This document shows, one piece after another, positions 16,386-34,524 of a stretch of DNA of 45,042 nucleotides. The notes beneath the pieces are model-generated. The model saw only the letters and a program-made list of their open reading frames with translations. It was not told where the DNA came from and made no database searches. A program made the translations under genes and the position numbers. Numbering within the stretch: position 1 is the first letter of the stretch; each line of letters begins with the position of its first letter. The DNA comes from an uncultured Halobacteriovorax sp. Its GTDB lineage: Bacteria; Bdellovibrionota; Bacteriovoracia; Bacteriovoracales; Bacteriovoracaceae. Where the stretch lies: the NCBI GenBank assembly GCA_964352175.1, contig CAYGQW010000001.1, positions 1 to 45,042 of the forward strand, given 5' to 3'.

Positions 16386-17006
16386 ATGAATATACAATTA
16401 GAAAAAAGTATCAACTTTTATAACGAAATGGCGACAAGAAGATCAATTAGAGAGTTCTCTAATCAGTCGGTTGATTCATCAATTCTTATTAATGCAATTA
16501 AAACAGCTGCTACTGCGCCAAGTGGTGCCAACAAGCAGCCTTGGCATTTTGCTTTAATACAACAAACAGATATAAAAGAAAAAATCAGAACAGAAGCAGA
16601 ATCAATTGAAGAGGATTTTTATAAACGTAGAGCACCTAAGCAATGGCTAGAAGACCTAAAACCTTTCAACACAAACTCAAGTAAAGCATATCTAACCGAG
16701 GCAAGCTCATTAATCGTTGTGTTCTCCCGCACCCATTCTGAAGACGAGCTAGGATTATTACAAAAAACATATTACCCACTTGAATCAACGGGTATTGCAG
16801 TTGGTCTACTACTGGCCTCACTTCATCAGTCTGGACTAGCAACTCTAACTCACACACCTAAACCGATGGGCTTTTTAAATCAATTATTAGATTTTGATAA
16901 GACATACAAACCTTATATGATCATTGTGACGGGTCATCCTAAGTTACCCTTAAATTTACCCAATATTACGAAAAAGACTACTGATCAAATTCTAACTATC
17001 TTTTAA
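16386..17006 (+). CDS. nitroreductase-family flavoprotein
   Basis: 206 aa. Has RRSIREFS and APSGANKQPWHF, characteristic of the NADH oxidase/flavin reductase (nitroreductase) fold. Confidence 0.8.
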   Translation: MNIQLEKSINFYNEMATRRSIREFSNQSVDSSILINAIKTAATAPSGANKQPWHFALIQQTDIKEKIRTEAESIEEDFYKRRAPKQWLEDLKPFNTNSSKAYLTEASSLIVVFSRTHSEDELGLLQKTYYPLESTGIAVGLLLASLHQSGLATLTHTPKPMGFLNQLLDFDKTYKPYMIIVTGHPKLPLNLPNITKKTTDQILTIF

Positions 17007-18224
17007 ATAGTTTTGATATAATTTGAAGTACAGCTTCTTGTAATCATCGTCCTTTAGTATTGAAGACCAATTTTTTCTGAAGTTCACAAAACTTTCAAAG
17101 TCAGCACTAAAACCATTAAATTTTGAGTGATTCATATTAAAAATCGATTCCAATAAATTAGCAACCGCCTTGATCCCAAATTTCTCAATACCTATTTGTC
17201 TCGTATCGACTTCCTTTTCCAGAGAGAGAAACATTAGCTGAGCGAATTCTTTAATGGAAAAGGTTGGGCCAAACTTATCAAATTTTACATTGCATCCATC
17301 AGCAATGCCCTCTTTAGTTAAGTCTAAAAAACCTCCCCAATTTGTTAAGACACAAGGAATATTTTTTAAGACCGCCTCTCTTGGTGCAAGTCCATAATCT
17401 TCATCATGAAAAGTACTAGTACTTACAAAGCAATCCGTCTCATCTAGAACTTTATTAACTGAGGAGTAAGGTACAGCAGGATGAAACTCAATAAGCTCAA
17501 CATACCTAGAAGGAACCTTTGATAACTCTAATTCTAAATATTTATTAAAGTCTTTATCGGGAAATTGTATTTGCCTAACGGGACACCAAATATGATCTAC
17601 ATCCCCATATATTTTCAGTTTCACATCTTTATTCGTCATTTCTTTTAATAAGCAAAAAGCTGTGACTAATTGTGGAATATTTTTAGCGAAAGAGAGTCGG
17701 CCGATATAAGTGAACTGAAATATATCACTTTTAGATGTTATTCTTTTGTTGGCAAAGATTTCATCTTGAAGTGGAAAAGGAGATTTAAAAACAATCTCTT
17801 TGTTTTTAACATAGCCTTTTAATAATTTAACCTGAGCATCAGAAGCACATAAAAATGCTGTCTTTAAGTTTTCGAGGTAATGACCTAACTCAAACCACTT
17901 AATGGCATCTAAATGAAATATGCCATAGATATAAAAAATAAAGGTACATGAGTTTGAAATTTTTTCGGCTTGTAGCTTTTTTATCAGATTAATAGGAACC
18001 GGTCTATGATCAGCAAAGAAAACAATCTCAGGATGTAGTGTTCGACATATGGAGACTATACTGTCTTCTTGTGCATCAATTGAATTATGATCTAAAAAAG
18101 CCTCTTGAAATCTATAGTTACCCTGCAAGTACGCTAGACTGGCTTTAATACCATCTACAATCACCTTTCGACTCATCCAGTCATCATCGTTAATTGAAGA
18201 TATCACTATTACTGTTTTTGTCAT
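16992..18224 (-). CDS. GT-B fold glycosyltransferase (GT4-like)
   Basis: 410 aa. The C-terminal half contains the EX7E-type region HDEDYGLAPREAVLKNIPCVLTNWGGF. This is the first gene of the AT-rich island and converges on the nitroreductase gene with a 15-nt overlap. Confidence 0.65.
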   Translation of the reverse strand: MTKTVIVISSINDDDWMSRKVIVDGIKASLAYLQGNYRFQEAFLDHNSIDAQEDSIVSICRTLHPEIVFFADHRPVPINLIKKLQAEKISNSCTFIFYIYGIFHLDAIKWFELGHYLENLKTAFLCASDAQVKLLKGYVKNKEIVFKSPFPLQDEIFANKRITSKSDIFQFTYIGRLSFAKNIPQLVTAFCLLKEMTNKDVKLKIYGDVDHIWCPVRQIQFPDKDFNKYLELELSKVPSRYVELIEFHPAVPYSSVNKVLDETDCFVSTSTFHDEDYGLAPREAVLKNIPCVLTNWGGFLDLTKEGIADGCNVKFDKFGPTFSIKEFAQLMFLSLEKEVDTRQIGIEKFGIKAVANLLESIFNMNHSKFNGFSADFESFVNFRKNWSSILKDDDYKKLYFKLYQNYLKDS

Positions 18225-18286
18225 TAACTAATAATTTATCATATATAATCTACTGAATATATCTCTATCTCGAAATAGGTTTTTAG

Positions 18287-18886
18287 ATGAAACTTTATAC
18301 TGATCTAAAAAATAAAAATGAATACTTAGATTGCCAAATTAAGTTAAGGAATCACAAACACTTAATTGTTAAGGACTTTTTCAAGCATGAAGTTTTGAAT
18401 TATGTACTTCAAATTATGGGGAACAATGAAGTTTACTTTAGAGATAAGGGTCGTTCATACATCGGAAATGACGAAACATTTGATTTCTTCCACTTCAAAT
18501 CTAAGATGAATGTATTAATCAATGAAGCAGCTTTTATCAATCAAATTAGAAAAATAACTGGTGACGAAAGTATAATAGAAGCAAGAGCAAGGTACTACAG
18601 GCTCATCGGAGAAAAAAAACATTTTCTTGATTGGCATAACGATGACGGCGAGCCAAATAGAGTTTTTTCATGCCGTATAGAACTTTCAAAGAATGAATAT
18701 ACTGGTGGTGAATTTGAAATCAGGGAGAAAGAGAACCAAAAAGTGTATTGCTCTATAGGAGCCCTTGATTTTGGTAGTGCCCTTTTCTTTCCTATTGATT
18801 ATGTAAACTTAGAGCATCAAGTCAAACCCGTGACCAGCGGAGAGCGGTACTCAATCCTTCTTTGGTTTTATTGTAAAAACAAATAG
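18287..18886 (+). CDS. 2-oxoglutarate/Fe(II)-dependent oxygenase (prolyl-hydroxylase-like), paralog A
   Basis: 199 aa. HxD...H facial triad candidates WHNDDG and LEHQV, plus the 2OG-binding Arg context SGERYSILLWF. Colinear with paralog B at 25325-25924. Confidence 0.7.
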   Translation: MKLYTDLKNKNEYLDCQIKLRNHKHLIVKDFFKHEVLNYVLQIMGNNEVYFRDKGRSYIGNDETFDFFHFKSKMNVLINEAAFINQIRKITGDESIIEARARYYRLIGEKKHFLDWHNDDGEPNRVFSCRIELSKNEYTGGEFEIREKENQKVYCSIGALDFGSALFFPIDYVNLEHQVKPVTSGERYSILLWFYCKNK

Positions 18887-18989
18887 TTAGGCAACACATG
18901 CCCACATATAAAGGTACTTCCGTCTTAATATATTTTTTAAAAAAGAAGTAAAAACAGATAATTAGTATAAAATCTGTTTAAATATGGAT

Positions 18990-19028
18990 ATAACATGCTA
19001 CATTATTATTAAATATAATATTACGGAG
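18990..19028 (+). promoter_or_regulatory. candidate sigma70-like promoter plus RBS for the small-peptide/GT2 transcription unit
   Basis: TATAAT at 19014-19019. ATAACA (4/6 match to TTGACA) at 18990-18995 with 18-nt spacing. GGAG at 19025-19028 lies 8 nt before ATG 19037. AT-rich DNA makes chance matches likely. Confidence 0.3.
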
Positions 19029-19036
19029 CAGTAGAA

Positions 19037-19174
19037 ATGAGTGAAGATTCTAATGACTTGTTTAATAAGAAAGTTATCCTAAAAGATGAAGTCCTTGGTG
19101 AATTTTCAGTATTTGAAGTTCCTGAAGATGAAGACTTAGGTATATTCGCATTCGGTAAACTCATCGAACTCTAA
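19037..19174 (+). CDS. 45-aa acidic peptide, a candidate modified-peptide precursor; not in the supplied ORF track
   Basis: ATG 19037 follows GGAG with 8-nt spacing. Translation is MSEDSNDLFNKKVILKDEVLGEFSVFEVPEDEDLGIFAFGKLIEL. TAA at 19172-19174 lies 10 nt before the GT2 start. This is the only sizeable intergenic gap in the island. Confidence 0.45.
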   Translation: MSEDSNDLFNKKVILKDEVLGEFSVFEVPEDEDLGIFAFGKLIEL

Positions 19175-19184
19175 AGACATCTAA

Positions 19185-20237
19185 ATGATAAGTGTTATCG
19201 TACCGACACTAAATAGTGAATCAACACTAGCACTTTGCCTAAAATCAATCTTTGATCAACATATATCTTTGCCCTTTGAGGTTATTGTCAGCGACTGTGG
19301 AAGTAGCGACACAACCGTCCAAATCGCGAAACGATTTAATGCACACATTACCTTAAGTCAAAAGAAGTCAGCGTCTGCTGCCAGAAATAAAGGCGCACAA
19401 ATAAGCTCAGGTAGCTATCTTGCGTTTATAGATTCAGATGTTGTCTTAAGTGATAACTGGCTTGAACAGAACTTTCAATCACTGAACGAAACAATCTTTG
19501 ATGTTTCTCAATCACCAGTAATACCAAGCGGCCCAAGTACATTCATTAACTCCTATCGCAAGCAGTTATCAAAGATATACACCAAAGGTACTTATAACCA
19601 TATTGATGTCGATCAAGTGCCTAAAATGACAGTTAATACTGCTGCTTGCATGCTAAAAAAGGAAGCCTTTGTAAAAGCCGAAGGCTTTGATGAAAACCTA
19701 CTAAAGTTAGAAGACACAGATCTCATGACGAGAATTTTTTACTCTTGTGGAAATTTCACCATTAGTAAGAATACAACTGCGCAAGTTTTTCGAACCGGCA
19801 ACTTGCTGGACTATATAGCTAGAAGCTTTCAAATAGGCTGTCAAACTAAAAGTTTCAAAAATAAATGGCAGCATACTTCCACGATACCTAGTCATCCATA
19901 CTTTACAAACTTCAAACATAGTATATTTTTTAAGTTTTTATTAATGACAAGTAAAGTGGGTGAACATTTAAGCCAAAACACAAACACCAACTTTAAAAAA
20001 TATATACCAAAAACAATAAAGTCGTACAAAAAAGCAGTGATTAAAAACGGAGATCAAACATATATTTTAAATCCATTTTCTCGAATCATAAATGGAACCT
20101 TCAAATCATACATCTACAACATTCTAACAAAGAAAAGTCATCCAATTGAAATCATTAACTCTAGCAACAACCAGCTATTCATCAGTGCAAAGAATATTGA
20201 GCAATTAAAAAATGATAACATCCTCTATGAAATATAA
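19185..20237 (+). CDS. GT-A fold family-2 glycosyltransferase with an extra ~100-aa C-terminal region
   Basis: 350 aa. Canonical GT2 N-terminus ISVIVPTLNSE...EVIVSDCGSSD..., ARNKGA and the DXD motif FIDSDV. The C-terminal third has no recognisable motif. Confidence 0.85.
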   Translation: MISVIVPTLNSESTLALCLKSIFDQHISLPFEVIVSDCGSSDTTVQIAKRFNAHITLSQKKSASAARNKGAQISSGSYLAFIDSDVVLSDNWLEQNFQSLNETIFDVSQSPVIPSGPSTFINSYRKQLSKIYTKGTYNHIDVDQVPKMTVNTAACMLKKEAFVKAEGFDENLLKLEDTDLMTRIFYSCGNFTISKNTTAQVFRTGNLLDYIARSFQIGCQTKSFKNKWQHTSTIPSHPYFTNFKHSIFFKFLLMTSKVGEHLSQNTNTNFKKYIPKTIKSYKKAVIKNGDQTYILNPFSRIINGTFKSYIYNILTKKSHPIEIINSSNNQLFISAKNIEQLKNDNILYEI

Positions 20238-22012
20238 GCCGAATCAACAGGGAAAAACTTCTCTTTTCTTCCAGAATGTCCTGATACAGAGAAAACGATA
20301 TTACCTTTAAGGTCATCAACAAGAGATGTGCGTTTCCTTATAGCTAAGCTACAGTCAAAATAATCAAAAAATAGATTTTTTGTAGCATCAATTAAATTCT
20401 GTTTTAAAAACTCATCTAACGACAGAGAACTAGCATGACAAACCTTGTTAGCACTGTCTAGCTTGAACGGAAAATAAAACTGCTCATGATTAATAATTCC
20501 ATCAACCGTACTAGTTAATGAGGATCGATCTGAATCAACGAGTGAATCTTTACCTTTAAGAAAGCTGCTTACTAAAGTATAGGAAAGTTTTAACTTACGA
20601 TCCAATTTTCGATTGATATTAAAATTATGAACTTTTGATTTTACCTCAGACTTGGAATTAATTAGTGTAAAGGAAGTAGAGTCAAAAATTTTATGACCTG
20701 AGACAACAGAGTCGAGTCGGCCGAATTGAATCTTACTAAAAGAGTCTTGTTCATTAAGGTCGTCTAAAAATAAGTTAAAGGCTTTAATCGTAAAAATTTT
20801 TAAACTATTAATATCTAAATCACAGTTATCGTAAAGGTTTCTTAAAGCCGTAACAAAAAGCAAGCAGTCAGAACTATCAACAAAAGTAAGGCGTGCCATT
20901 TGGGAAATGTAGTTAAAGAATAAATCCTCAAAATGACCAAAGCTATAGTTTCTTAAAAGGTTGGCTTGCTTAAATTTTTTAAAATAAATATGAAGTGTAT
21001 TTAAGAACTGCACCAAGGAACAATAAGCATGTAAAACATCCTTACCTTCAAGGTCACAAAGATCCTCAATCATGTGAGTAAGCTCACCGCTCCCCTTGTC
21101 GCGTTCTACAGAGAACATAAAAGTATAGTTACCAGGGCCAAACTTATTATCTATCCCCTGCATATCAACTAATTTGCCATCAACGCAAAAGTTTTCATGA
21201 TTAAAATGAGGATGATTAAAACCCATATGCACAAAACTTGCTAATTGAAACACAAGGTTGGAAAAATAAGTTTCGCCTTTGTCTTCATCAATTGAACTAA
21301 GAAATAAAAAATCATTTGCAGCTAAAAGGTCTGTATTTAACTGTGAAATTCTTAGCGAATAAGGCTCTCTTGCCATGGGATAAGAGAGTAAATTATTTGT
21401 AGATTTTGCATAAAAAAGTGCAATACTTGAGACTGAACCTAAAAAGGTACCAGAAGCGACAATTCTTGATAAGAAAAGTGAGTATATTGACTCGTGAAGA
21501 CTGGAACCTCCCCAACTATTGCCCAAATCGTCAAATCCAACAAATTGATTTCGGCCAATGCCTTTAATCTCGATATTACCTATAAGGTAGTTTCGTCCTT
21601 TTCCAAAATGAGCTTTAAAAGATGAGCAAAATGATTCAACTAAAACATACAAAGAGTCATTATCCAGACTACCATGAGAATTAATCAGTCCACCTGGGTT
21701 ATCATTAGTAAGATAGATAAGATTTTCAAACCTATAAGTAGAGGAAGATGAAGGTCTGCTAAATCCGTTACGATAAGATAAGCATAGATCATCAATATTA
21801 TTAGGACGACTATTTTGAGTGGTAGTCTTCAGACGTTCAAGAAAAGATAGCGACTCAATCAAATCTTTTTCTTTTCTACGATCAATATAAAAAACAAAAG
21901 AATCAGAAGGTTTTGAAACAGAAACGGCAGAAAAAAAAGAACTCCAAAGATGACGATAATCCTTGGTAGATATCAAGTTTATATGATTAAACACATCATT
22001 TGTCATAAACAA
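20225..22012 (-). CDS. large protein of unknown function with possible protein-kinase-like/SelO-like motifs
   Basis: 595-aa ORF in very AT-rich DNA, where long chance ORFs are unlikely. The probable start is ATG 22006 (track start is TTG 22012). Motifs seen: IEIKGIGRN (res ~147-155), GGSSLHES (res ~168-175), and FVHMGFNHPHFNHENFCVDGKLVDMQG (res ~260-286). These resemble the Gly-rich loop, the conserved Glu, and the catalytic-loop Asn/Mg-binding Asp of kinase-fold enzymes. The gene lies directly downstream of the PqqD-like gene. Confidence 0.6.
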   Translation of the reverse strand: MFMTNDVFNHINLISTKDYRHLWSSFFSAVSVSKPSDSFVFYIDRRKEKDLIESLSFLERLKTTTQNSRPNNIDDLCLSYRNGFSRPSSSSTYRFENLIYLTNDNPGGLINSHGSLDNDSLYVLVESFCSSFKAHFGKGRNYLIGNIEIKGIGRNQFVGFDDLGNSWGGSSLHESIYSLFLSRIVASGTFLGSVSSIALFYAKSTNNLLSYPMAREPYSLRISQLNTDLLAANDFLFLSSIDEDKGETYFSNLVFQLASFVHMGFNHPHFNHENFCVDGKLVDMQGIDNKFGPGNYTFMFSVERDKGSGELTHMIEDLCDLEGKDVLHAYCSLVQFLNTLHIYFKKFKQANLLRNYSFGHFEDLFFNYISQMARLTFVDSSDCLLFVTALRNLYDNCDLDINSLKIFTIKAFNLFLDDLNEQDSFSKIQFGRLDSVVSGHKIFDSTSFTLINSKSEVKSKVHNFNINRKLDRKLKLSYTLVSSFLKGKDSLVDSDRSSLTSTVDGIINHEQFYFPFKLDSANKVCHASSLSLDEFLKQNLIDATKNLFFDYFDCSLAIRKRTSLVDDLKGNIVFSVSGHSGRKEKFFPVDSAYIS

Positions 22013-22065
22013 TGAATAAGCGCAAAAATATAAATTGAAACTGTAAATTTGAGTTAGAGAACTGC

Positions 22066-22332
22066 TTAAACAAGTTCAATGAGATCCTGTTCTTCAAGCT
22101 TTTTAATAAAGTCAGACACCTTATCTTTAACGCTATCATTAGAAAGCTTTAAATCTTCAACTTTTTTATAAAAGTCACTTTCATCTATGCCGTCTTCAGA
22201 TAAAAGCAGCCAGATATTTTTGAAGTGACCGCGTAAAGTGTAAAAAGCTTCATTACCTGTAAATGAAACCAAGTAGATTTCATCTGCTTTCTCTGTCACC
22301 ACTACAGAACTTTTAATTTTAATAATACTCAT
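22066..22332 (-). CDS. stand-alone PqqD-like protein (RiPP recognition element type)
   Basis: 88 aa. N-terminal beta-strand region (VVVTEKADEIYLVSFTGNEAFYTL) is followed by ...NIWLLLSEDGIDESDF...VKDKVSDFIKKLEEQDLIELV. This matches the PqqD pattern (y.LN....iW.ll.......l.......d...Dv..Fl..L.e.gLi). Confidence 0.6.
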   Translation of the reverse strand: MSIIKIKSSVVVTEKADEIYLVSFTGNEAFYTLRGHFKNIWLLLSEDGIDESDFYKKVEDLKLSNDSVKDKVSDFIKKLEEQDLIELV

Positions 22333-22418
22333 TGATACCCCTTAATTAAGTATTATAACTTGAATATATTAGGATATAAATAAATAAAACCTAACGCCCC
22401 ACACTAAATACGAGGTTG

Positions 22419-23288
22419 TCATGGAAATCTCAAAGCCATTCGCCTTAAGAGCTTGGAAAAATGAGACTGTACATATTCAGGATCAAGAAACAAGAACAAT
22501 ATTGCAATACAAAAGCTTGAAAGAAAATATAAGTGAATAACAGGGATAATCAAAAGATGGAAAATAATAAAGCAAAGCACAACATGCTTTTTATACCTAG
22601 ACCATAAGGCAAAAGCTCCCAATGTTTCACCAATGATAACTGCATAGTTTCCAATATAGAGTATAAAATAAGGCAATATTGGCAAGTTTAATGATTTAGA
22701 AAAGTGAAGGAGTGCGTCTCCCGTATACCATATTTCATTATTGAATTTTGCAAATCCGGCATTAAAATAGATAACTGACAAACTTAACTTCATCAAAAAA
22801 ACAAAACTGTTATGTATTGGAGTAAAGTATTGAATATTTTTTGAAATAAGCTTTGGCCGTTTTGATAATTCAAGAACTAAATGCTCGTTCGTAACGATAA
22901 AACATAGACAGAACAGAGCTCTACATACAATTCGATCTATACCAGTAACATATAGAAAGCTTCCATGTATAAAGAAAATATTTATAATAAAAATAATTCT
23001 AAGTAATTTCACCCCTCCCCAACCTAATCCATAAAAAATAATCAAGAGCAAAAAAACTAGATGAAAATATGGGGTAAAAATGAAATCGAAGAAATCAAAA
23101 AGATTTACAAGTCCAAAATATTCAAAACTAAAATAAGTCGACTTAATATAATAAATATTAAAATTTATTTGTCTTTCAAGATAAAAAACAAAAAGCAAAA
23201 TAGAAAATACGATTCTAAATATCGACAAATTATAAGTTGTATCTTTTGTCCAAAAAAAAGAATCGAGTTTATCTATAACCTTAATCAT
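22419..23288 (-). CDS. HTTM-domain (vitamin-K-dependent-carboxylase-related / SdpB-like) polytopic membrane protein
   Basis: 289 aa with at least 7 hydrophobic segments. The N-terminus, ...NLSIFRIVFSILLFVFYLER, resembles the conserved start of HTTM domains (sLa.fRi.fG...). The ATG overlaps the stop of the upstream gene (ATGATTAA). Confidence 0.5.
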   Translation of the reverse strand: MIKVIDKLDSFFWTKDTTYNLSIFRIVFSILLFVFYLERQINFNIYYIKSTYFSFEYFGLVNLFDFFDFIFTPYFHLVFLLLIIFYGLGWGGVKLLRIIFIINIFFIHGSFLYVTGIDRIVCRALFCLCFIVTNEHLVLELSKRPKLISKNIQYFTPIHNSFVFLMKLSLSVIYFNAGFAKFNNEIWYTGDALLHFSKSLNLPILPYFILYIGNYAVIIGETLGAFALWSRYKKHVVLCFIIFHLLIIPVIHLYFLSSFCIAILFLFLDPEYVQSHFSKLLRRMALRFP

Positions 23289-23769
23289 AATTTAACTCCT
23301 TACAATCAATTTCAATTGTATTAGTTAAACTACCTTCATCTAACTCTTGCTTTGAATGATATGTATCAATAATACTATCTTGATTCTTACCACTAACTTC
23401 ATAGATGAATATCTTCAAGCGAGACGAGGGATCGAGTCCCGAGCACAGATGCCTATTCCTATGAGAAACTTGATATTTTTTATAAAAAAACATCGCTTTA
23501 TAAAACATATTATTGTGGCGATGGTCGAACAAAACATTGTAAGGCAGCATAGATCTGTTTTTAACAAATAAAAGATGTTCTTCATTGTTTATATATTGCA
23601 CTACTTTATATTTAGTATTATATTTTTTAACTAAAAAAAGCGCCCAACTTCCGTCTTGAAAGAAAGTCTTTCCCAGTACATTAAAAAACGATTTTTTGTA
23701 GTAATTGTTTATCGTCGTTCCCTCGAGAGGTATGACGATAAACAGAAGAGATAGAAATATCAACAGCAA
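23281..23769 (-). CDS. small N-terminally anchored protein translationally coupled to the HTTM gene (SdpA-like position)
   Basis: 162 aa from the first canonical start, TTG 23769 (MLLIFLSLLFIVIPLEG...). The in-frame upstream codons ATA 23805/ATT 23802 would add IIKKKYQTLLSF, a positively charged n-region. Size and gene order mirror sdpA-sdpB, but no sequence motif is recognised. Confidence 0.45.
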   Translation of the reverse strand: MLLIFLSLLFIVIPLEGTTINNYYKKSFFNVLGKTFFQDGSWALFLVKKYNTKYKVVQYINNEEHLLFVKNRSMLPYNVLFDHRHNNMFYKAMFFYKKYQVSHRNRHLCSGLDPSSRLKIFIYEVSGKNQDSIIDTYHSKQELDEGSLTNTIEIDCKELNYD

Positions 23770-23824
23770 GAAAGATAAAAGGGTTTGATATTTTTTTTTA
23801 ATTATTACCCCATGCTTTAATTAT

Positions 23825-25294
23825 CTAATTCATCAAATCAGACAAATCTAAGTCTACATAAGTGAAATTAGAAACATTTATAATATCTCTTGATAACTTA
23901 TGTCTTTGTCCAAATGGATCAGTCATAAACTGATGATCGATGGAGAAATAAGAATTATCAATAAAAACAATCTTTTCGAGCTCATTAATCCTAATGACCA
24001 TGGATTCTCCTTCTTTCAGAAAAGTAGAAACAGAGGTCAACAACTGAAGTCTTTGGTCGTCAGAAATAGAATTAACTATATTTATATTTTTATGCTCGAA
24101 GGAGTAAATAGTCTTAAAAATTTCATTCTTCAGCTTAAAGCCTTCATTTATAGATTTATAATATATTTTATAATTAATAGTCGTCCTATAAATACCTGGT
24201 GCAATCACGAAAAATACAATAACACTGAACCATTTGGATTTATTATTTTTAAAAAGTATATGCATCATGCTCAAAATAATAGGGACTAACCACACTGAGC
24301 GTGAAATTGCTGTATGATTGGAAATGAGACAAAATGGCAATGCAATTGCCGATAAAGCCAAGAAATAACTTAAAAATAAGCGAATCTCTTTCTTCTTTTT
24401 CAAACTCACATAGAATAAAGCCAAAATAAATAAGACAGGAGCAATAAAATAAAATGAATGATTATAGCTGAGCAATAAACTGGCCTTAGAATCAAAACTA
24501 TTGAGTCCTGTAGATAAATAATAACTAAAAACTTTATGGACGTTTGCAAAATCAATTTTCAAAAAGCCTGCATCAGCAAGTTTCCAAATAAAAACCCTCA
24601 CAAAGACATAGACCAGACTCGGAATACTAATAATTAAGAGCTCAACTACTCTCTTAATGTCTTTTTTTAGGAAATGAAAAATTAAAAGAAATGGAAAGGT
24701 TATGGCTGCTTCATGGCAAGTTATAGCAATAATCTGAAAAATAAATAATTTTATCAACAAAAATCTATCAAAATTCACTTTGCGATCTATCAGATTACAT
24801 AAGTAGCACACATATAGAAAAAGTAAGTGGTATTTAAATGTAAAAGAAGATACCAAGAGTGATGGTGCGGAAGAGTTAAATAAAACATAGGTTAAAAGGA
24901 TACCTATCTGAAAAATATCCAGATTTTTTTTATTCTTAAATAAAAAATTTATTCCAAAGATAAAAAAACAAAAATTTAGCAAGACATAGAAATAGGCAGA
25001 ATTTAACCTTAGTAATTCAAAAAGATAATATTGTGAGAAAAATGACGACGGGCGATATTGGCCAAAATTTATGGTCGATGTATAAATTTTAAACCAATAG
25101 TCTATTGAATGAGTATATTCAGAATTATAAGCTTTAAAAAATCTGAGAGAATCAGAATCTAATTGAATATTAAAAAGGCAAAGTAAAATAGCAATTACAA
25201 AAATCGGGGTACCTAACAAAATATATTTCCGAAGATCACGAGTAAAATAGCGCATTAAATCCGACTTTTTTTGTTTGGCATTAATTGTTAACAC
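23825..25294 (-). CDS. polytopic membrane protein, possibly a GT-C-type glycosyltransferase or polymerase
   Basis: 489 aa with roughly 11-13 hydrophobic segments across the first ~370 residues, followed by a soluble C-terminal ~120 aa. An acidic DSDS motif (NIQLDSDSLRFF) sits directly after the first TM segment, where GT-C enzymes carry their DxD/ExD loop. Confidence 0.5.
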   Translation of the reverse strand: MLTINAKQKKSDLMRYFTRDLRKYILLGTPIFVIAILLCLFNIQLDSDSLRFFKAYNSEYTHSIDYWFKIYTSTINFGQYRPSSFFSQYYLFELLRLNSAYFYVLLNFCFFIFGINFLFKNKKNLDIFQIGILLTYVLFNSSAPSLLVSSFTFKYHLLFLYVCYLCNLIDRKVNFDRFLLIKLFIFQIIAITCHEAAITFPFLLIFHFLKKDIKRVVELLIISIPSLVYVFVRVFIWKLADAGFLKIDFANVHKVFSYYLSTGLNSFDSKASLLLSYNHSFYFIAPVLFILALFYVSLKKKKEIRLFLSYFLALSAIALPFCLISNHTAISRSVWLVPIILSMMHILFKNNKSKWFSVIVFFVIAPGIYRTTINYKIYYKSINEGFKLKNEIFKTIYSFEHKNINIVNSISDDQRLQLLTSVSTFLKEGESMVIRINELEKIVFIDNSYFSIDHQFMTDPFGQRHKLSRDIINVSNFTYVDLDLSDLMN

Positions 25295-25324
25295 GCTTAA
25301 GAATAACGTATATAATAATAAAAT

Positions 25325-25924
25325 ATGAAATTTTTTTCAAAACTAAGAAATCCACAAGCATATTTAGACTACCAAAGGATCTTCCAAGAAGATAAATATG
25401 TCATCGTTAATAATTTTTTTCATAGCGATTTTCTAAATTCTTTAATAACTATTATGAGTGATAGACAGGACTACTATATACCCTCTACTCACAATTTAGG
25501 ACTAGACGATACTTTTAAATTTACCCCTCTCGATCGAAAGAGTGAGATTCTTCTTAATGATGAAAAATTCTTACATGAAGTAAGGATGTTTACCGGAATA
25601 AGCTCAATTACGCATGCCAAGCCTCGATTCTACAGAATTAAATCGGGTGCAGAGCACTTCCTCTCTTGGCATAATGATGACGGCGAACCCAATAGAGTTC
25701 TCGCCTGTCGGATTGAGCTGTCAACTAGTTTTTATAAGGGTGGTGAATTTGAAATAAGAGAAATAGGAAAGAAAGAACCATTTGTTTCAATTGGACAACT
25801 AAAGTTCTCGCAAGCGGTATTTTTTCCTGTAGAAACAAATAAATTTGAACACCAAGTAAAACCCCTAACCGAAGGAGAAAGATACTCTTTTTTAATTTGG
25901 TTCTATGAAGGAGCAAGATTATAA
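25325..25924 (+). CDS. 2-oxoglutarate/Fe(II)-dependent oxygenase, paralog B
   Basis: 199 aa, colinear with paralog A. The core is nearly identical: HFLSWHNDDGEPNRVLACRIELS...GGEFEIRE...FEHQVKPLTEGERYSFLIWF. Confidence 0.7.
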   Translation: MKFFSKLRNPQAYLDYQRIFQEDKYVIVNNFFHSDFLNSLITIMSDRQDYYIPSTHNLGLDDTFKFTPLDRKSEILLNDEKFLHEVRMFTGISSITHAKPRFYRIKSGAEHFLSWHNDDGEPNRVLACRIELSTSFYKGGEFEIREIGKKEPFVSIGQLKFSQAVFFPVETNKFEHQVKPLTEGERYSFLIWFYEGARL

Positions 25925-26844
25925 ATATCGGAATAAAAGAAATACAAATTTACGAACCAGAAGATAAAATTTCGGCCGAGTCCTTAGGGATTAAGTTCTC
26001 CTTAGAGGGATCATTTATTGAGGAAAAAATAGGATTTAGGAACTTTGGAAAATTTTCGAAACAAGAAGATAATTTCTTTGTATTACAGAATGTCATTAAA
26101 CAACTTAAACGTTATGAAAATATTAAAAATAAAATTGACTTTTTAATAGTAAGTACTCCAATGCCTAGTCATATAGCTCCACATATGTCTGAAATGCTAC
26201 GTGATCAGCTTGAGCTTTCTTCAAATGTATTTACCCTTGATGTAAATCTTGGTTGCACCGGTTATGTAAAACCTCTCATGATTATTAATTCACTTATGAA
26301 AGATTATAAATTCAAGCAGGGAATCCTATTAACAATTGCTCAAACTAGAAAATCCATACAAGATAATGACAAAGACACAAACTTAATTTTTGGTGACACA
26401 GCAAGTGCAACTTTAATTAGTGATGATACGAACTATAAGTTTAATTCTTTCAATTTTGGCTCAAACTCAAAAAAGGATAGTTTTAAAGCAATTATTGGAA
26501 ATACAGGCAAACATTTCACTATGGATGGTAGAGGGGTTTATGAATTTGTACTTAAAAATATTCCACCTGCAATACGTGAGATAAGTGAAAATAATGAAAT
26601 TGATTATTATATATTTCACCAAGCCTCAAAGGTTATCGTTGAGCAATTAGCTAAAAGATTAAAAATAGAAGAAAATCAATATAGCTTCAATACGAAGATG
26701 CCTGGAAATTCAGGCGCTACAACTATCCCATATAATTTAAAAAAAATAATTGAGAATAAACAATATAAAAAAATACTGCTTAGCTCTTTTGGATCAGGCC
26801 TTGAATGGGCAAATTGTATTTTAGAAAGGGTCGATAATGAGTAA
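25921..26844 (+). CDS. KASIII (FabH-like) condensing enzyme/acyltransferase with a probable non-canonical start
   Basis: The track lists only 26161-26844. The frame is open from 25909 and encodes a FabH-like N-terminus (INIGIKEIQIYEPEDKISAESL...). Cys-His-Asn triad contexts are NLGCTGY, IFHQAS and PGNSGATTIP. Starting at ATA 25921 places the Cys at residue 112. GAAGGAG (25907-25913) lies 7 nt upstream of ATA 25921. There is no ATG/GTG/TTG in frame before 26161. Confidence 0.65.
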   Translation: MNIGIKEIQIYEPEDKISAESLGIKFSLEGSFIEEKIGFRNFGKFSKQEDNFFVLQNVIKQLKRYENIKNKIDFLIVSTPMPSHIAPHMSEMLRDQLELSSNVFTLDVNLGCTGYVKPLMIINSLMKDYKFKQGILLTIAQTRKSIQDNDKDTNLIFGDTASATLISDDTNYKFNSFNFGSNSKKDSFKAIIGNTGKHFTMDGRGVYEFVLKNIPPAIREISENNEIDYYIFHQASKVIVEQLAKRLKIEENQYSFNTKMPGNSGATTIPYNLKKIIENKQYKKILLSSFGSGLEWANCILERVDNE

Positions 26845-27079
26845 CGAACAAGCTATACAATCTATACAAAACTCTTTTGTTGAAGCTGGGTTTGAGGGAA
26901 AGCTAGATTATAAAAATCTAGCGATACCACTAGATCAGCAAGGGATTGATTCATTAACCATGATGGCATTTGTTTTTGAGTTAGAAGAATCAACAAGTTT
27001 TAGATTACCTAATCATATGCTGCAAAAAGGCATTACTTTAAAACAAATTATTCAATTTTTATGTTCCGAATCTAAATAA
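26837..27079 (+). CDS. acyl/peptidyl carrier protein (ACP/DltC-like)
   Basis: 80 aa. Phosphopantetheine attachment context QQGIDSLTMMAFVFELEE. 8-nt overlap (ATGAGTAA) with the KASIII gene. Confidence 0.75.
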   Translation: MSNEQAIQSIQNSFVEAGFEGKLDYKNLAIPLDQQGIDSLTMMAFVFELEESTSFRLPNHMLQKGITLKQIIQFLCSESK

Positions 27080-27675
27080 GAATAAACAGTGAGTAGATGA
27101 TTGCCCATTACAAAAGAATCAAAGCATACAAAGTCAGTAAACGAATTATTTCTAAGCTTAATAGAAACGCTTTCATTCTTTATTGTACCAAGCTGTGAGT
27201 ACTTCAGTCTAGTAGCTATCAGTTTATCGAATCGATTAAAATCTGTTGTCAAAATATCCCTAGCGGACTCCAAAACAAGATTTAAAACATCAGAAGTTAA
27301 AGTTGAACTAGCAATAAATTCACGTTCAAAAGAAGTGCTTTTAGTAAAATCGGGGGAGTAGTCCTCAAGTTGTTCAATTTTTTTCAAAGGAGAAGAGTTA
27401 CTAACGCCATAGTAGTTAATTCTTCTACCATTAATATATACAACTTCAACTTTAAAAAGTTGAGACTCATGTTCCATAATCCTATCAACAAGCTTTACAG
27501 TGGTACTAACAGGAGATTTAAAAATAATGTCTATTGTTTTGAAGTCTTTAAATAAAGTCTCAATTGATAAAAGTATATCAACAGCTTTAACGTATAAACG
27601 TCCATTAAGGAGACTGATATCTATAAGTTCTAGTCTAGAATTGAAAATAAACAAACTCCTTAATGCCATAAACAC
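27052..27675 (-). CDS. hypothetical protein, last gene of the SGNH-MBOAT operon
   Basis: 207-aa ORF in AT-rich DNA with no recognised motif. It overlaps the MBOAT 3' end by 41 nt (same strand) and the carrier-protein 3' end by 28 nt (convergent). The start is uncertain. Confidence 0.4.
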   Translation of the reverse strand: MFMALRSLFIFNSRLELIDISLLNGRLYVKAVDILLSIETLFKDFKTIDIIFKSPVSTTVKLVDRIMEHESQLFKVEVVYINGRRINYYGVSNSSPLKKIEQLEDYSPDFTKSTSFEREFIASSTLTSDVLNLVLESARDILTTDFNRFDKLIATRLKYSQLGTIKNESVSIKLRNNSFTDFVCFDSFVMGNHLLTVYSYLDSEHKN

Positions 27676-29035
27676 TAAATCGAATTAAACTTATCGTTAG
27701 AGTAGATAATAGAAAAGTAAAAATGATTGGATTTAATTTTGATATTTTTTTAATTAAATTAAATTTAAAATCAATGTATTGAAATACGACAGTTAAAATA
27801 GCTAATACAAAAAGAATTGGAGGCACTTCCCTCCCTAATTCAGACCAATTGAAAATACGAAGATAGAGGTTGGTAAAATTAGAATCAGTTAGATTGATCG
27901 TGACTAGAGATGTTAACGAAAACCATATTAAAGTAATAATCACAGATAATAAACTAGGAAGCTTAAAATTTGAGTACTTTGAAAACAATATAGAAAAAAC
28001 AAAAGCAATCAAATGTATAGCAAACCAATATAAAATATTTGAGCCGATTGCGTGCCAAAAACCCGAAAAAGCAAAACTAATAAAAATGGCAACAAAGATG
28101 GAAAGTTTTGTTTTTTTTGTTTTAAAATAAAAAAACCTAGCGATAGGACTGAAAATGTAATCACGAATAAAATCATAAAAAGTGATATGCCACGAAGCCC
28201 ATCTTTGCACAATATTTTTCGCTAGAAGAGTATTAATAAAGTTCTGTGGTATTTTAAATCCAAGTAATCCAGCTAAACCAACGGATATATCCGAATAAGC
28301 TGAAAAATCCAGATACAGTCTAATATAATTCAAAAATGATATCTGGAAAATACCTAAAGAATTATATAGCTCATTATGATCATTAAAGTAACTGATCTCA
28401 TAAGAAAATCTATCGGCGAGAACTAGTTTTTTAAAAAAACCAATTACAATAAGGAGTATGTACTTTCTAAAGTCGATAGCTTTAAAATATTTAGAAGATC
28501 TCAATTGTGGCAAGAATTCATCTGACCTAACAATTGGACCAGCAATAAGTTGTGGAAAGAATGAAATATATAGTAGGAAATCAAAAATAGAGTTTGAAGC
28601 CTCTAAACGACCATTATAAACATCAACAACATAACTAATTGACTGAAAAGTATAAAAGCTTATACCCAAAGGAAGAACAATACTTAAGCTTGTTACATCA
28701 TCAGCTAAAACAGTTGGAAAATATTGGTCAAAAAAACCAATAAGGGAGGCAAGGTATTTAAATCCAAATAGTAGCGAAAGATTTAAGGCTAGACTTGTAA
28801 GGAGAAGAATTTTTCTGCTCTTCGTATTTTTTTCTTTCGAAATTATTTTTGCCAGGTAATAGTCTGTCAGTGATGAAAATATAATAAGACTTAAAAATCT
28901 ATAGTCCCAAAAAGAATAAAAGACATAGCTGCTTAAAAGTAAAAAGAAATTGCGCTGATTATTCTTTGGCAATAACCAATAGGATATGAATACGACTATA
29001 AAAAATAATATAAAAGAAAAGTCTACATATAACAT
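27635..29035 (-). CDS. membrane-bound O-acyltransferase (MBOAT; AlgI/DltB/PatA family)
   Basis: 466 aa, polytopic. Family hallmarks: GISFYTFQSISYVVDVY, FFPQLIAGPIVR, and the conserved His context FSGFWHAIG. Confidence 0.85.
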   Translation of the reverse strand: MLYVDFSFILFFIVVFISYWLLPKNNQRNFFLLLSSYVFYSFWDYRFLSLIIFSSLTDYYLAKIISKEKNTKSRKILLLTSLALNLSLLFGFKYLASLIGFFDQYFPTVLADDVTSLSIVLPLGISFYTFQSISYVVDVYNGRLEASNSIFDFLLYISFFPQLIAGPIVRSDEFLPQLRSSKYFKAIDFRKYILLIVIGFFKKLVLADRFSYEISYFNDHNELYNSLGIFQISFLNYIRLYLDFSAYSDISVGLAGLLGFKIPQNFINTLLAKNIVQRWASWHITFYDFIRDYIFSPIARFFYFKTKKTKLSIFVAIFISFAFSGFWHAIGSNILYWFAIHLIAFVFSILFSKYSNFKLPSLLSVIITLIWFSLTSLVTINLTDSNFTNLYLRIFNWSELGREVPPILFVLAILTVVFQYIDFKFNLIKKISKLNPIIFTFLLSTLTISLIRFSVYGIKEFVYFQF

Positions 29036-29967
29036 CAGTTTTTATTCTTTTTTAATGGAGTACAGATAGACTCTCCAATTCGTTGAGAAATAAGTCTTGC
29101 TCCCCCTCTATTTGGATGACTGTGATCGTACCAATATTCAACGTCATACAAATCACGATCGCTATTTGGACTCAAAACTAGAGAATCATCTAATTGAGTT
29201 TTTAAAAAGTGCTCATTGCCTATTGAGAAATTATAGGGCAATAGCAATTTATAGCTAATTTTATCCAAATCTAAATAAGTCATATTCCTTAAAATATCAT
29301 TAGGCTTTTGTGATAAATCCGAATGATTATAATTTTCAACTTTCAATCTGAATTCCTCTAAAGACTTTTCTTCTAAGAATTTGGTGTGACGTTTAAAATT
29401 ACGACCGAACTGATCGTCTAAAGCCCACCAACCCATTTGTCCAACTGGATAACTACCAATTGAGCTTTGAGATGCAAACCAATGACTAGCACTATAGCCA
29501 TGGCCTAAATTGTGCTTCAAAAATCTTTTAATTAACTTTATTTTGTCAGCGAGTGTTGGAGATTGACTCCATTCGAAAGTGAACGCATCCCAATCAAGTG
29601 TTAAAATTGATTGATAACTAAACTCGTTATTATCAAAATTTACAAATGGATAGATGAAAAAAGTAGTTTTAACCTGTGAATGCTTTTTTATATAATCAAT
29701 AACAAAGTCATAATCTTTGATCGACATATTTGGAATCGAAAAATTAAAGCTACTAATATTACAGCCATTAGCTTTTGCATATTCATCAACAACTTTAGGA
29801 TTGATCGTACGATAATAATTACTCGCACCTAAAAAAATAACATTATGTACTTGAGGATTATAATCAATGAATTTTTCAGAAAAGTGCTTTATATATGGAG
29901 GGAAAAAATATGCAAGAGACCTCCCTCCCAAAAACAAAACAGTCAAATATAGTAAAATGTATTTCAC
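29035..29967 (-). CDS. N-terminally anchored SGNH/DltD-like partner of the MBOAT
   Basis: 310 aa with a signal anchor. Block I-like VIFLGASN and block V-like YDHSHPNRGGARLISQRI (DxxH). Its stop overlaps the MBOAT start (TGATG), the classic two-component O-acyltransferase arrangement. Confidence 0.55.
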   Translation of the reverse strand: MKYILLYLTVLFLGGRSLAYFFPPYIKHFSEKFIDYNPQVHNVIFLGASNYYRTINPKVVDEYAKANGCNISSFNFSIPNMSIKDYDFVIDYIKKHSQVKTTFFIYPFVNFDNNEFSYQSILTLDWDAFTFEWSQSPTLADKIKLIKRFLKHNLGHGYSASHWFASQSSIGSYPVGQMGWWALDDQFGRNFKRHTKFLEEKSLEEFRLKVENYNHSDLSQKPNDILRNMTYLDLDKISYKLLLPYNFSIGNEHFLKTQLDDSLVLSPNSDRDLYDVEYWYDHSHPNRGGARLISQRIGESICTPLKKNKN

Positions 29968-30042
29968 ATTTATTATTATACCTTTAATTACTATAACTTG
30001 AATTAGTTTGATTGAATTTTAATCGTTGTTTAAAATAAATGT

Positions 30043-30483: not shown

Positions 30484-31809
30484 TTACAGTTTGAACATAG
30501 ATGGAAGTGGAAGAACTACACCTTCACTCTTAACATTCGACTTCGTATCAGATGAAGGAATGTCTTGTACATCTGTAATCGAGTTACGAATAGCAAGGTC
30601 AACATTCATTGAACGAGATAGCTCAGCCGCACGAACTGCACGAGCAGAGTTAACAGTTCCTGAAGTCTTAACTTTACCAACAAGCCATTCACGAATATCG
30701 ACAGTTCCAAGAATAATTTTCTTGATATCTCTTGGAGAAAGCTCAGTGTTTGCATCTTTAACTTGGCCAGCAATATTTGCTACGAATGGTGAAGCTTGAG
30801 AAGTACCACTTACAACAAGATATTTATTACCAGGAACAGTTGAATCAATTCCAACACCAGGAGCTGCAACGTCTACCATTGAAGCGCCATAGTTAGAAAA
30901 GCTTGCAAGCTTATTAAACTCTAATGCAGCAGCAACAGAGATAACGTTATCAGCTTGGATATTTGTTGGTGAAGTTGGGAACTCATCATTATTAAGACCA
31001 TCATTACCAGCAGCGAAAACAAACAAAGTGTCTTCAGCAGCTTGAACCATATGATCGCCCTCTTTAATAAGAGTATTTAAGAACTCAACTGTTAGCTCAT
31101 GAATTTGCTCATCTGTTGGAGGCTCTTTTCTCATAATAGTTCCAGCAAGCATTTCAACAATCATACGCGCTTGTGGATAACCAGTACCAAATGAACCGTT
31201 AGCAACATCAACTTTGTGACCATCGATATAACGAGCAACACTTGTAAGCATAACCATTTGCTGAGTAGCCAATAGCTTTAAGCCTTGCTTAAGTAGGAAG
31301 AGCCCTGGTCCTGCTTTTTGTGTTTTAAATGGAAGCTTTACCTCTGTAGGGATGATCTTAACTGCCATAACTTTAGCAAGATCTGAATCTTTTGCAGTAA
31401 TACCCGCGACGTGTGTTCCGTGCATGAAGTTTCCATAAACCTGAAGAGACTTAATAAAGTCTGCATCTTGGACTTTCATCTTAACCCAATCTTTTTCTTC
31501 TTGAGTCGCTGTACCATAGAAAGATTTTGTTTGGATTTCGAAGAAGCGACGAACATCAAAAGTCAGAGAACCCATATAAGAGTAATCGATGATTTGATTG
31601 TTAGTTTCAGCAAAGTTCCAACCGTTGATATCATCTTGATAACCATTAAAGTCATCATCACGATCATTTGCTTCGATCTCACCAGCATTAACCCAAGCTT
31701 TATCATAAAGCTCTTTGTGAAGTAGATCTGTTCCAGAATCAATAACTGCGATGGTTGCACCATGGGCAGTAAAAGAGGCCAAGGCCAAAATAGCTAATAA
31801 CTTTTTCAT
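30484..31809 (-). CDS. secreted subtilisin-like serine protease (S8)
   Basis: 441 aa with a signal peptide. Catalytic triad contexts AVIDSGTD, HGTHVAGI, SGTSQASPFVA. Confidence 0.85.
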   Translation of the reverse strand: MKKLLAILALASFTAHGATIAVIDSGTDLLHKELYDKAWVNAGEIEANDRDDDFNGYQDDINGWNFAETNNQIIDYSYMGSLTFDVRRFFEIQTKSFYGTATQEEKDWVKMKVQDADFIKSLQVYGNFMHGTHVAGITAKDSDLAKVMAVKIIPTEVKLPFKTQKAGPGLFLLKQGLKLLATQQMVMLTSVARYIDGHKVDVANGSFGTGYPQARMIVEMLAGTIMRKEPPTDEQIHELTVEFLNTLIKEGDHMVQAAEDTLFVFAAGNDGLNNDEFPTSPTNIQADNVISVAAALEFNKLASFSNYGASMVDVAAPGVGIDSTVPGNKYLVVSGTSQASPFVANIAGQVKDANTELSPRDIKKIILGTVDIREWLVGKVKTSGTVNSARAVRAAELSRSMNVDLAIRNSITDVQDIPSSDTKSNVKSEGVVLPLPSMFKL

Positions 31810-31874
31810 TAAAGAACCTCCGTGTCATAGCCACGTTTAATAACAGTAAAAGAAGAGTTTAATTAAAACGCCCT

Positions 31875-31900
31875 AATGTTGAACTGTCCCGTCCAACATT
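31875..31900 (-). terminator. possible weak terminator hairpin downstream of the second S8 gene
   Basis: aatgttg / caacatt 7-bp stem with a 12-nt loop, and T-rich flanks on both strands. It is AT-rich with a large loop, so support is weak. Confidence 0.3.
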
Positions 31901-31933
31901 CTGTCTTTTGCTGTCATTTTTGAGGTTTATTTT

Positions 31934-33442: not shown

Positions 33443-33560
33443 TGTTCCTTCCTTGGATTGAGGTCTCTATCGCTATTGTAACTTTCAAATACTAGGCCAG
33501 CTTCCCAGCACATTATTCCGGGGTATTAGACGTATATAGTCGGGATCAGTTTGACCCTAG

Positions 33561-33592
33561 AAAAACAAAATGACCCCTTAAAAAAGGGGCCA
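33561..33592 (-). terminator. rho-independent terminator of the S1 protease gene
   Basis: Stem cccctt/aagggg (33574-33579 / 33584-33589) with a 4-nt loop. On the minus strand it is followed by ATTTTGTTTTT. Confidence 0.6.
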
Positions 33593-33621
33593 TTAATAAG
33601 AAATTGAATAGTTAGAACTTA

Positions 33622-34524
33622 TTAGTCTTGAGGCTGTGTTGCCAAGATTTCCATAAGAGCAGTGATGTTTGTAATTCTTGTTACGTCTTCACCGCGACAA
33701 GAATCATTTTCACACTTATTAGAAACTCTGCAACCTTGGTTATAGTCGTAGTTGTAGTCATTTTCACCACGAACTAGAATTCCTTCAACGGTGTGATCTT
33801 TAGCATTAAATACAGCTGAACCAGAATTTCCGCCGTAGGTATCTAGGTTTGCATTGAAGAAAACATCGTTAGAGTTATCACGTACGTTTGCTCCGCCAGC
33901 AACTTTTGTTGGAAGACCAGTTGGGTGACCAATAACTAGGATTGGATCATTATCTGTAATTTTTGCAGAAGTACGTACTTTTAAGTGTGGACGAACGATC
34001 TCTGCATTAGAAATGTTTTCAATTCTAATAAGAGCGAAGTCATCTTGGGTTGAACGATCAAGAGAACGTGAAATGATCTGCGTACACTTAAACACACTTG
34101 TTGTCTTAACAGTCATAGCAGCTTCTGTATTGGCATCAAAGTGAGCGTAATCAAAAACCCATTTATTAGAGTCACAGTCATCTTGAGAAGTTATACAGTG
34201 ACCAGCAGTTACTAAAAGATTCTTACCAACTAAGAAGCCTGAACAATTAGCAGCTGTCATCTGTTCAGAGAAACGCTCTGATTCACACATTCCACGTTGC
34301 TTAAGTGAAGGACCAGCAATGGTAGCATCTTCGCCCGCAATAGTGATTTTAGAAGAATCAATCATGCCTGCAGTTGCAGCAGCTAATCTTAAAATATCAG
34401 TATCAGTTACTTCGTATAGATCAAGACGGTCATCTTCACCGTATATGACTTTGTTATTTGTATCGCTTGCAAAACTAAGAGTAGTTAAAGCTGCTAATGC
34501 GATGATCATCCCTAATTTGTACAT
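33622..34524 (-). CDS. secreted trypsin-fold serine protease (S1, V8/Glu-endopeptidase-like)
   Basis: 300 aa with a signal peptide. Triad contexts LVTAGHC, DDFALIRI, GGNSGSAVF. Confidence 0.8.
   Translation of the reverse strand: MYKLGMIIALAALTTLSFASDTNNKVIYGEDDRLDLYEVTDTDILRLAAATAGMIDSSKITIAGEDATIAGPSLKQRGMCESERFSEQMTAANCSGFLVGKNLLVTAGHCITSQDDCDSNKWVFDYAHFDANTEAAMTVKTTSVFKCTQIISRSLDRSTQDDFALIRIENISNAEIVRPHLKVRTSAKITDNDPILVIGHPTGLPTKVAGGANVRDNSNDVFFNANLDTYGGNSGSAVFNAKDHTVEGILVRGENDYNYDYNQGCRVSNKCENDSCRGEDVTRITNITALMEILATQPQD

Follow-up and report, generated by a model that had tools for sequence, protein, structure and literature searches.

What does a SelO/YdiU-like enzyme with a protein-kinase fold do when its gene stands directly beside the gene of a small PqqD-family protein? 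Such a gene pair lies in a 45,042-nucleotide stretch of DNA from an uncultured Halobacteriovorax sp. (contig CAYGQW010000001.1), here called the window. The FtsH encoded in the window clusters at ≥ 90% identity with the FtsH proteins of Halobacteriovorax and Bdellovibrionales metagenome-assembled genomes, which points to a Halobacteriovorax-like source. The enzyme gene occupies 20225..22012 on the minus strand and, in the list of open reading frames (ORFs), encodes 595 aa from a TTG start. The small gene, at 22066..22332 on the minus strand, encodes an 88-aa stand-alone protein that profile comparisons place in the PqqD family, as a putative RRE (recognition element of ribosomally synthesized and post-translationally modified peptides, RiPPs). 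A first-pass annotation of the window had described the two ORFs as co-directional with a 53-nt gap, and both were recovered at those positions, with the gap at 22013-22065. An ATG at codon 3 (22006) of the large ORF was the start used by a gene caller, which gave a 593-aa protein (P0001). This ATG is probably the true start, and counted to it the gap is 59 nt.

We propose, with a probability of about 0.5, that this gene pair forms the core of a RiPP-type cluster in one Halobacteriovorax-like member of the Bdellovibrionota, and that the SelO-like enzyme, guided by the RRE, would nucleotidylate a peptide.

The large protein and its relation to SelO/YdiU

The 595-aa protein alone gave no match in Pfam, NCBIfam, PADLOC or the PDB sequences, and a word-index search of 5.8 billion proteins returned only the protein itself. 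A search for related loci with the single protein likewise gave no relatives in genome contigs. It had earlier been called an orphan, which is not strictly the case. When 1.84 billion cluster representatives were scanned exhaustively with HMMER, 50 relatives came out at E ≤ 1e-3 (best P0003, 4e-21), and the protein thus belongs to a rare family. The relatives form two length classes, one of about 470 aa and a longer one of 540-640 aa, and a Pfam domain was found in none of them. The family alignment (A1) holds 45 members and is the basis of the residue counts given here. None of the 45 matched the Pfam SelO model (PF02696), even at E ≤ 10, and the family is without any Pfam or NCBIfam model.

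The kinase-like motifs that had been read by eye were all found where they had been placed. They are KGIGR (150-154), SSLHES (170-175, with E174), NHEN (271-274, with N274) and VDMQG (282-286, with D283), and K150 is followed by N274 after 124 residues and by D283 after 133. In A1, R140, K150, G151, G153, G168, R215, R221, N274, G279 and D283 were invariant (45/45), and E126, H165, W167 and G169 were nearly so. The expected conservation of the four catalytic-type residues was therefore seen in full for K150, N274 and D283 and in part for E174, a position that was Asp or Glu in 36/45 (80%) and Gln in 8/45. Position 273 was Glu or Asp in 41/45, and position 269, the counterpart of the HRD Asp of true kinases, was not Asp. 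Given this conservation, the motifs are not a matter of chance.

An AlphaFold2 model built from A1 was confident, with a mean predicted local distance difference test score (pLDDT) of 77 and a predicted template modelling score (pTM) of 0.85. The fold was kinase-like, and the best nine Foldseek matches of the model in the PDB were all SelO/YdiU (6lna, 9jyn, 9jym, 6iii, 6eac, 9l29, 6k20). These nine had E-values of 1.5e-6 to 5.8e-5, a probability of 1.0, about 480 aligned columns and about 12-14% identity. Ordinary kinases (GSK3, SYK) appeared in the list only from E 5e-3 upward, and SARS-CoV-2 nsp12, which contains the NiRAN domain, gave weak matches at ranks 35 and 45. The A1 profile gave only sub-threshold matches against the PDB sequences, all of them to protein-kinase catalytic loops or to SelO.

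Profile comparison was then made with SelO itself. The SelO set drew on ten diverse selO genes from plasmids and on the E. coli gene (NC_000913), and a 15-sequence alignment was used; a homologue search seeded with E. coli SelO gave at least 79% identity throughout among the 120 matches listed. Against E. coli SelO alone, hhalign gave A1 a probability of 79%. Against the 15-sequence alignment, the probability was 96.7% (E 4.6e-10, 156 columns), so that the likeness to SelO/YdiU noted in the first-pass annotation was borne out by both structure and profile. The hhalign map aligned R140 with the Arg of the first GDGR in SelO and K150 with K107 of the E. coli protein (K113 in P. syringae). E273-N274 corresponded to D246-N247 (P. 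syringae D252-N253) and D283 to D256 (P. syringae D262), and the Asn-to-Asp spacing was 9 residues in both SelO and the large protein. Two arginines that had previously gone unmentioned, R215 and R221, aligned with R170 and R177 (P. syringae R176 and R183). In SelO, the inverted ATP is held at its gamma-phosphate by K113, R176 and R183, and N253 and D262 serve as Mg ligands (PMC8097203). These results demonstrated that the family is a remote homologue of SelO/YdiU, a new and very divergent branch of the SelO-like fold that is not a member of PF02696. In the aligned residues it keeps the SelO catalytic signature.

The same data bear on whether the enzyme might instead be a true kinase in the same RiPP cluster, phosphorylating Ser, Thr or Tyr of the precursor, perhaps for elimination as in class III-V lanthipeptides. 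The protein-kinase fold agrees with this, as does the contact of the A1 profile with canonical catalytic loops (HRDLKPENLLLD vs HxSxxxENxxxDG), and RiPP pathways with kinase-fold enzymes have been described, such as those of cacaoidin-type clusters. However, the HRD Asp position is not Asp, both SelO gamma-phosphate arginines are invariant, and SelO beats the kinases about 1000-fold in E-value among both structural and profile matches. No lyase or cyclase partner was recognised among the neighbouring genes. We therefore consider a true kinase unlikely.

The C-terminal half had been described as about 300 residues without recognisable features. Since the Foldseek alignments span about 480 columns, part of it is SelO-like C-lobe. 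The last ~170 aa (residues ~424-595) form an extra C-terminal domain that occurs in the long subclass only. No stand-alone counterpart of this domain was found in the short-class loci, and it was modelled poorly on its own (pLDDT 55).

The PqqD-family protein, its neighbours and the precursor-like peptides

The 88-aa protein had been labelled PqqD-like, and taken alone this label is weak. The window protein gave no match to Pfam PqqD (PF05402), and a word-index search with it returned itself only. Its full-length matches were weak ones, to NCBIfam lasso_PqqD_Bac (E 0.0068, below the cut-off) and to TbiB1 (E 0.63). The label was confirmed through the protein's family. Three of the small-protein homologues found near family members elsewhere exceeded the Pfam PqqD gathering score of 23.4 (32.1, 30.9 and 29.2 bits), and a hidden Markov model built from the homologues without the window protein scored the latter at E 1.8e-4. 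The profile of the joint alignment (A3) matched TbiB1 in the PDB (5v1u) over its full length at E 9.2e-5, followed by two PqqD-family chaperones and TfuB1. The hhalign probability for the PqqD-like family was 89%. On these profile matches, the 88-aa protein is predicted to be a PqqD-type RRE.

We investigated the context of the gene pair in related loci, which were gathered from contigs encoding family members, from a genome scan and from a metagenome pattern scan (14 matches, 13 of them true family members). Their named sources were Bacteriovoracaceae, Halobacteriovoraceae, Bdellovibrionales and Oligoflexia metagenome-assembled genomes (MAGs), together with one outlier of 65% guanine plus cytosine (GC). 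Of the 16 loci with informative flanks, 13 had a stand-alone PqqD-like gene no more than about 4 kb from the SelO-like gene, so that the pairing seen in the window recurs elsewhere. Fold, conserved residues and recurrent pairing were the three points on which the first-pass annotation could have failed, and on none of them was its reading refuted. In the 470-aa class, the conserved module comprised a glycosyltransferase of type GT4, a family-less protein of about 220 aa, a 57-66-aa ORF, the PqqD gene, the SelO-like gene and a second GT4; locus L012 carries this whole module on one strand. In the long class, to which the window belongs, the constant partner was a GT2 glycosyltransferase gene, which often converges on the SelO-like gene and runs into its 3' end. 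The convergent, overlapping arrangement was present in the window, L001, L005, L006 and the P0010 contig, and the GT2 of L001 is homologous to that of the window (E 1e-59). A 2-oxoglutarate (2OG) or cupin oxygenase was usually nearby in the long class, and oxygenases of the Cupin_8/JmjC or PF13640 type stood beside the family members of L001, L005 and the P0010 contig.

The 65%-GC metagenome contig (L038, 1528-7332) carries an operon of a C39-peptidase ATP-binding cassette (ABC) exporter, a SelO-like gene (614 aa), a 579-aa family-less protein and HlyD. A C39-peptidase ABC exporter together with HlyD is an arrangement typical of secreted peptides. The 9.5 kb available at this locus showed no PqqD gene. 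One Bdellovibrionales MAG locus (L014, 8379-9206 and 11702-13105; also L037) has two SelO-like genes a few kb apart, and the 275-aa gene at L014 may be truncated.

The recurrence of the neighbourhood also bears on a housekeeping role, in which the enzyme would AMPylate cellular proteins and stand beside PqqD by chance, or would serve as a non-catalytic pseudokinase scaffold. Canonical SelO/YdiU does AMPylate or UMPylate proteins (PMC8097203). However, the link with PqqD, peptide and glycosyltransferase genes recurs in divergent loci of a very rare family, while a dead scaffold would not be expected to keep all catalytic residues invariant. Such a role is highly improbable.

Precursor-like peptides were most regular in the 470-aa class, where ORFs of 57-66 aa adjoin the PqqD gene in every locus. 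The N-terminal two-thirds of these ORFs are conserved (Y.Y..PE.VSL.N.IKD.IP.YDEI...TL.VYA), and the C-terminus is variable, Tyr-rich and often carries two Cys. By this pattern they resemble RiPP precursors with a leader and a core. The Cys pairs of several precursors are a further point that would suit the true kinase considered above. A [VI][FYW]A motif ahead of the variable end is common to the precursors of both classes.

Long-class loci usually have a short acidic ORF immediately 5' of the GT2 or the PqqD gene. The candidate precursor in the window is a 45-aa peptide, MSEDSNDLFNKKVILKDEVLGEFSVFEVPEDEDLGIFAFGKLIEL, encoded at 19037..19174 on the plus strand. A GGAG precedes its ORF by 8 nt, 10 nt separate the end of the ORF from the GT2 gene, and a promoter-like site (ATAACA-18-TATAAT, 18990..19019, plus strand), a consensus match only, lies just 5' of the ORF. 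The peptide contains 12 Asp/Glu in 45 residues and has a conserved C-terminal IEL. A homologous 50-aa ORF, MSDEDKSIFEEIKLIDDELGSFSKFTVSDSAEKELSGQDIHAFGIKMIEL, is found at the same position in L001; a further homologue was found in L018, and related peptides in L033, L040 and L005. Support for a precursor is thinner in the window class than in the 470-aa class.

The acidic composition of the window peptide raises another reaction, as catalysed by SidJ, a kinase-fold enzyme that forms acyl-adenylates. A carboxylate of the peptide (Asp, Glu or the C-terminus) would be adenylated and then attacked to give an amide or ester cross-link or a conjugate. The 12 acidic residues and the conserved IEL end would accommodate this chemistry, but SidJ was not among the Foldseek structural matches and no acceptor or ligase logic was evident. 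We regard it as very doubtful.

In the subgroup of P0006 and the 562-aa proteins, a precursor-like peptide (…[FY]AK…GGYDDD…) forms the end of a longer ORF of 87-154 aa (L005 11658-12068, L030 5067-5531, L040 5974-6237). A separate PqqD gene was not found in these three loci. The 136-154-aa ORFs of the P0006/L030 group were considered as fused RREs, a proposal left unsupported by hhalign against the PqqD family (0.8%).

Proposed pathway and known systems

In the pathway that we propose, the 88-aa PqqD-family protein would bind the leader of a short precursor, for which the 45-aa ORF is the candidate in the window, and would hand the peptide to the 595-aa SelO-like enzyme. The enzyme would transfer a nucleoside monophosphate (NMP), either AMP or UMP, from a nucleoside triphosphate to a side-chain hydroxyl of the peptide, with release of pyrophosphate. 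The reaction would depend on the RRE, and the nucleotide may lie in the orientation known from SelO. The GT2/GT4 glycosyltransferases and the 2OG-Fe(II) oxygenase would make further modifications. Transfer of an NMP rather than of phosphate seems most likely because the SelO-type residues (Lys, two Arg, the acidic-Asn pair and the metal-binding Asp) are kept and the HRD Asp is absent.

Several observations weigh against this proposal. The global superposition of the model on SelO is poor (TM-score 0.31-0.42, root-mean-square deviation about 12 Å), which places the similarity to SelO at the level of the domain. The alphaC Glu is not invariant. The distance of position 174 from the Lys does fit that of the alphaC Glu in SelO (24 vs 23 residues), but hhalign offsets it by one helical turn from SelO E130 (P. 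syringae E136). The lack of any PF02696 match counts in the same direction, and the family has its own invariant H-S-W-G-G motif at the SelO GDGRA site, so that the nucleotide orientation could differ. The candidate peptide of the window lies 2.9 kb from the RRE on the opposite strand and has only a handful of homologues. Lastly, the pair sits in an island of the window that is rich in glycan- and acyl-type genes, namely those for glycosyltransferases, a membrane-bound O-acyltransferase (MBOAT) and an acyl carrier protein (ACP), and surface-polysaccharide chemistry also fits these genes.

The last point can be put as an alternative, in which the enzyme acts on a sugar or glycan as a sugar or glycopeptide kinase or nucleotidyltransferase (cf. 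POMK, Fam20B, WaaP), together with the glycosyltransferases of a surface-glycan island. A GT2 or GT4 gene is indeed the most constant neighbour, and the window island adds MBOAT, ACP and FabH-like genes and large membrane proteins. Nevertheless, PqqD/RRE proteins and leader-core peptide ORFs co-occur systematically with the enzyme, one locus has a C39 bacteriocin-type exporter, and no sugar-kinase structure stood above SelO in the Foldseek ranking. A glycan substrate is distinctly unlikely.

We compared this proposed system with known ones. SelO/YdiU (PF02696; 6EAC, 6K20, 6III, 6LNA) is the best structural match and a profile homologue, with the same Lys, two Arg, acidic-Asn pair and metal-binding Asp and the same lack of an HRD Asp. 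The window family differs from it in falling outside PF02696, in having H-S-W-G-G for GDGRA and a shorter loop from the first Arg to the Lys, and, in its long subclass, in the extra C-terminal domain of ~170 aa. SelO/YdiU is a stand-alone stress-response gene, whereas the neighbours of the window gene encode an RRE, a precursor-like peptide and glycosyltransferases. Enzymes of the class III-V lanthipeptides (LanKC, LanL, LxmK) likewise have a kinase fold, and they act on a leader-bearing ribosomal peptide, as is proposed for the window enzyme; glycosyltransferase and PqqD-like genes can accompany them. The cluster of cacaoidin, a class V lanthipeptide, with kinase-like, PqqD and glycosyltransferase genes, is the nearest analogue that the literature searches returned. 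The lanthipeptide enzymes, however, are true phosphotransferases coupled with lyase and cyclase functions, whereas the window enzyme has a SelO-type signature and its gene has no recognised lyase or cyclase neighbour.

The 88-aa protein itself is closest to the RREs of lasso peptide systems (TbiB1, TfuB1 and other PqqD-family chaperones). It aligns end to end with TbiB1, and, like these, it is stand-alone and its gene adjoins that of the partner enzyme. In contrast to the lasso systems, the partner is neither a lasso protease nor a lasso cyclase, and the precursors bear no relation to lasso peptides. The NiRAN domain of nidoviruses and Legionella SidJ also use a kinase fold for NMP transfer or adenylation, but their similarity to the window enzyme is far weaker than that of SelO and their biological context is unrelated.

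No paper that connects SelO/YdiU or pseudokinases to PqqD or RiPPs turned up in full-text literature searches. To our knowledge, the only role described for SelO/YdiU is that of a stand-alone protein AMPylase/UMPylase with links to redox and stress responses. Tailoring guided by an RRE is known, and so are RiPP enzymes with a kinase fold; a SelO-type enzyme in that role is not. We tentatively suggest, with rather less assurance than for the cluster itself, that the loci represent a previously undescribed RiPP class, mainly of predatory Bdellovibrionota with at least one high-GC outlier, that is marked by RRE-dependent, SelO-like AMPylation or UMPylation of a peptide. In such a class, nucleotidylation might be the final decoration or an activated intermediate, alongside glycosylation and hydroxylation. 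If this is true, it would give RiPP biosynthesis a new family of enzymes and, in the nucleotidylation of a peptide by a kinase fold, probably also a new modification. It would also widen the catalogue of kinase-fold enzymes with non-kinase chemistry and point to natural products from predatory bacteria, which have been little explored.

Other genes in the window

A terminator-like hairpin (22415-22397) followed by a promoter-like site (22380-22352) lies at 22352..22415 on the minus strand, the former 3' of the upstream membrane-protein gene and the latter 5' of the PqqD-like gene; both are consensus matches only. Taken together, they suggest that the PqqD-like and SelO-like genes may be a two-gene unit of their own. 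Promoter and terminator scans gave plausible sites, but their counts were not convincingly above the shuffled expectation.

The pair lies in a low-GC stretch of the window (17-30 kb) with about 28-32% GC, against 36-42% in the flanks. This island (17000-30000) contains the cluster and many genes without a family match. Because of the GC difference and the many family-less genes, horizontal acquisition of the island is suggested.

The GT2 glycosyltransferase gene (19185..20237, plus strand, 350 aa) and the SelO-like gene converge, sharing 13 nt at their 3' ends. A 2OG-Fe(II) oxygenase (PF13640; 18287..18886, plus strand, 199 aa) is encoded upstream of the peptide ORF. The GT4 glycosyltransferase encoded at 16992..18224 on the minus strand (410 aa) is homologous to the GT4 of the peptide/PqqD operon in 470-aa-class loci. 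The GT4 encoded 3' of the SelO-like gene in L012 (11412-12533) scored 26.9 bits against PF20706, 'GT4 in conflict systems' (gathering score 26), and the GT4 of L030 (4024-5070) scored 22.6 bits, below that score. Membership of a defence system was considered for the window genes and rejected, as PADLOC gave only a generic 2OG match.

A second 2OG-Fe(II) oxygenase, also of 199 aa and 46% identical to the first, is encoded at 25325..25924 on the plus strand, and it is uncertain whether its gene belongs to the cluster. The two paralogues flank the block of SelO-like, PqqD and membrane-protein genes on either side. Three genes directly upstream of the PqqD gene (22419-25294, minus strand) encode proteins of 289, 162 and 489 aa, the first and the last of which look by eye like multi-pass membrane proteins. 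They had no match in Pfam, NCBIfam or PADLOC and no homologue in the related loci, and their membership in the cluster, for example in export or immunity, is uncertain.

Further along the island (26161-29967) lie genes for a FabH-like protein (227 aa), an ACP (80 aa), a 207-aa ORF overlapping the 3' end of the ACP gene, an MBOAT (466 aa) and a 310-aa protein. The alignment of the FabH-like protein to the FabH model begins only at position 85, so that it lacks the first ~85 residues of a complete FabH. Together these genes look like an acyl-carrier/O-acyltransferase module, similar in kind to the Dlt or AlgI systems.

No leader peptidase or dedicated exporter was identified in the window island. 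Just outside it, at 30484-34524, lie genes for two subtilases (S8) and one trypsin-like protease, and these proteases could be leader peptidases or simply predatory hydrolases. The GC content of the stretch at 32-33 kb is unusually high (0.49). A single tRNA-Met gene (40455-40531) was the sole Rfam or ARAGORN match in the window.

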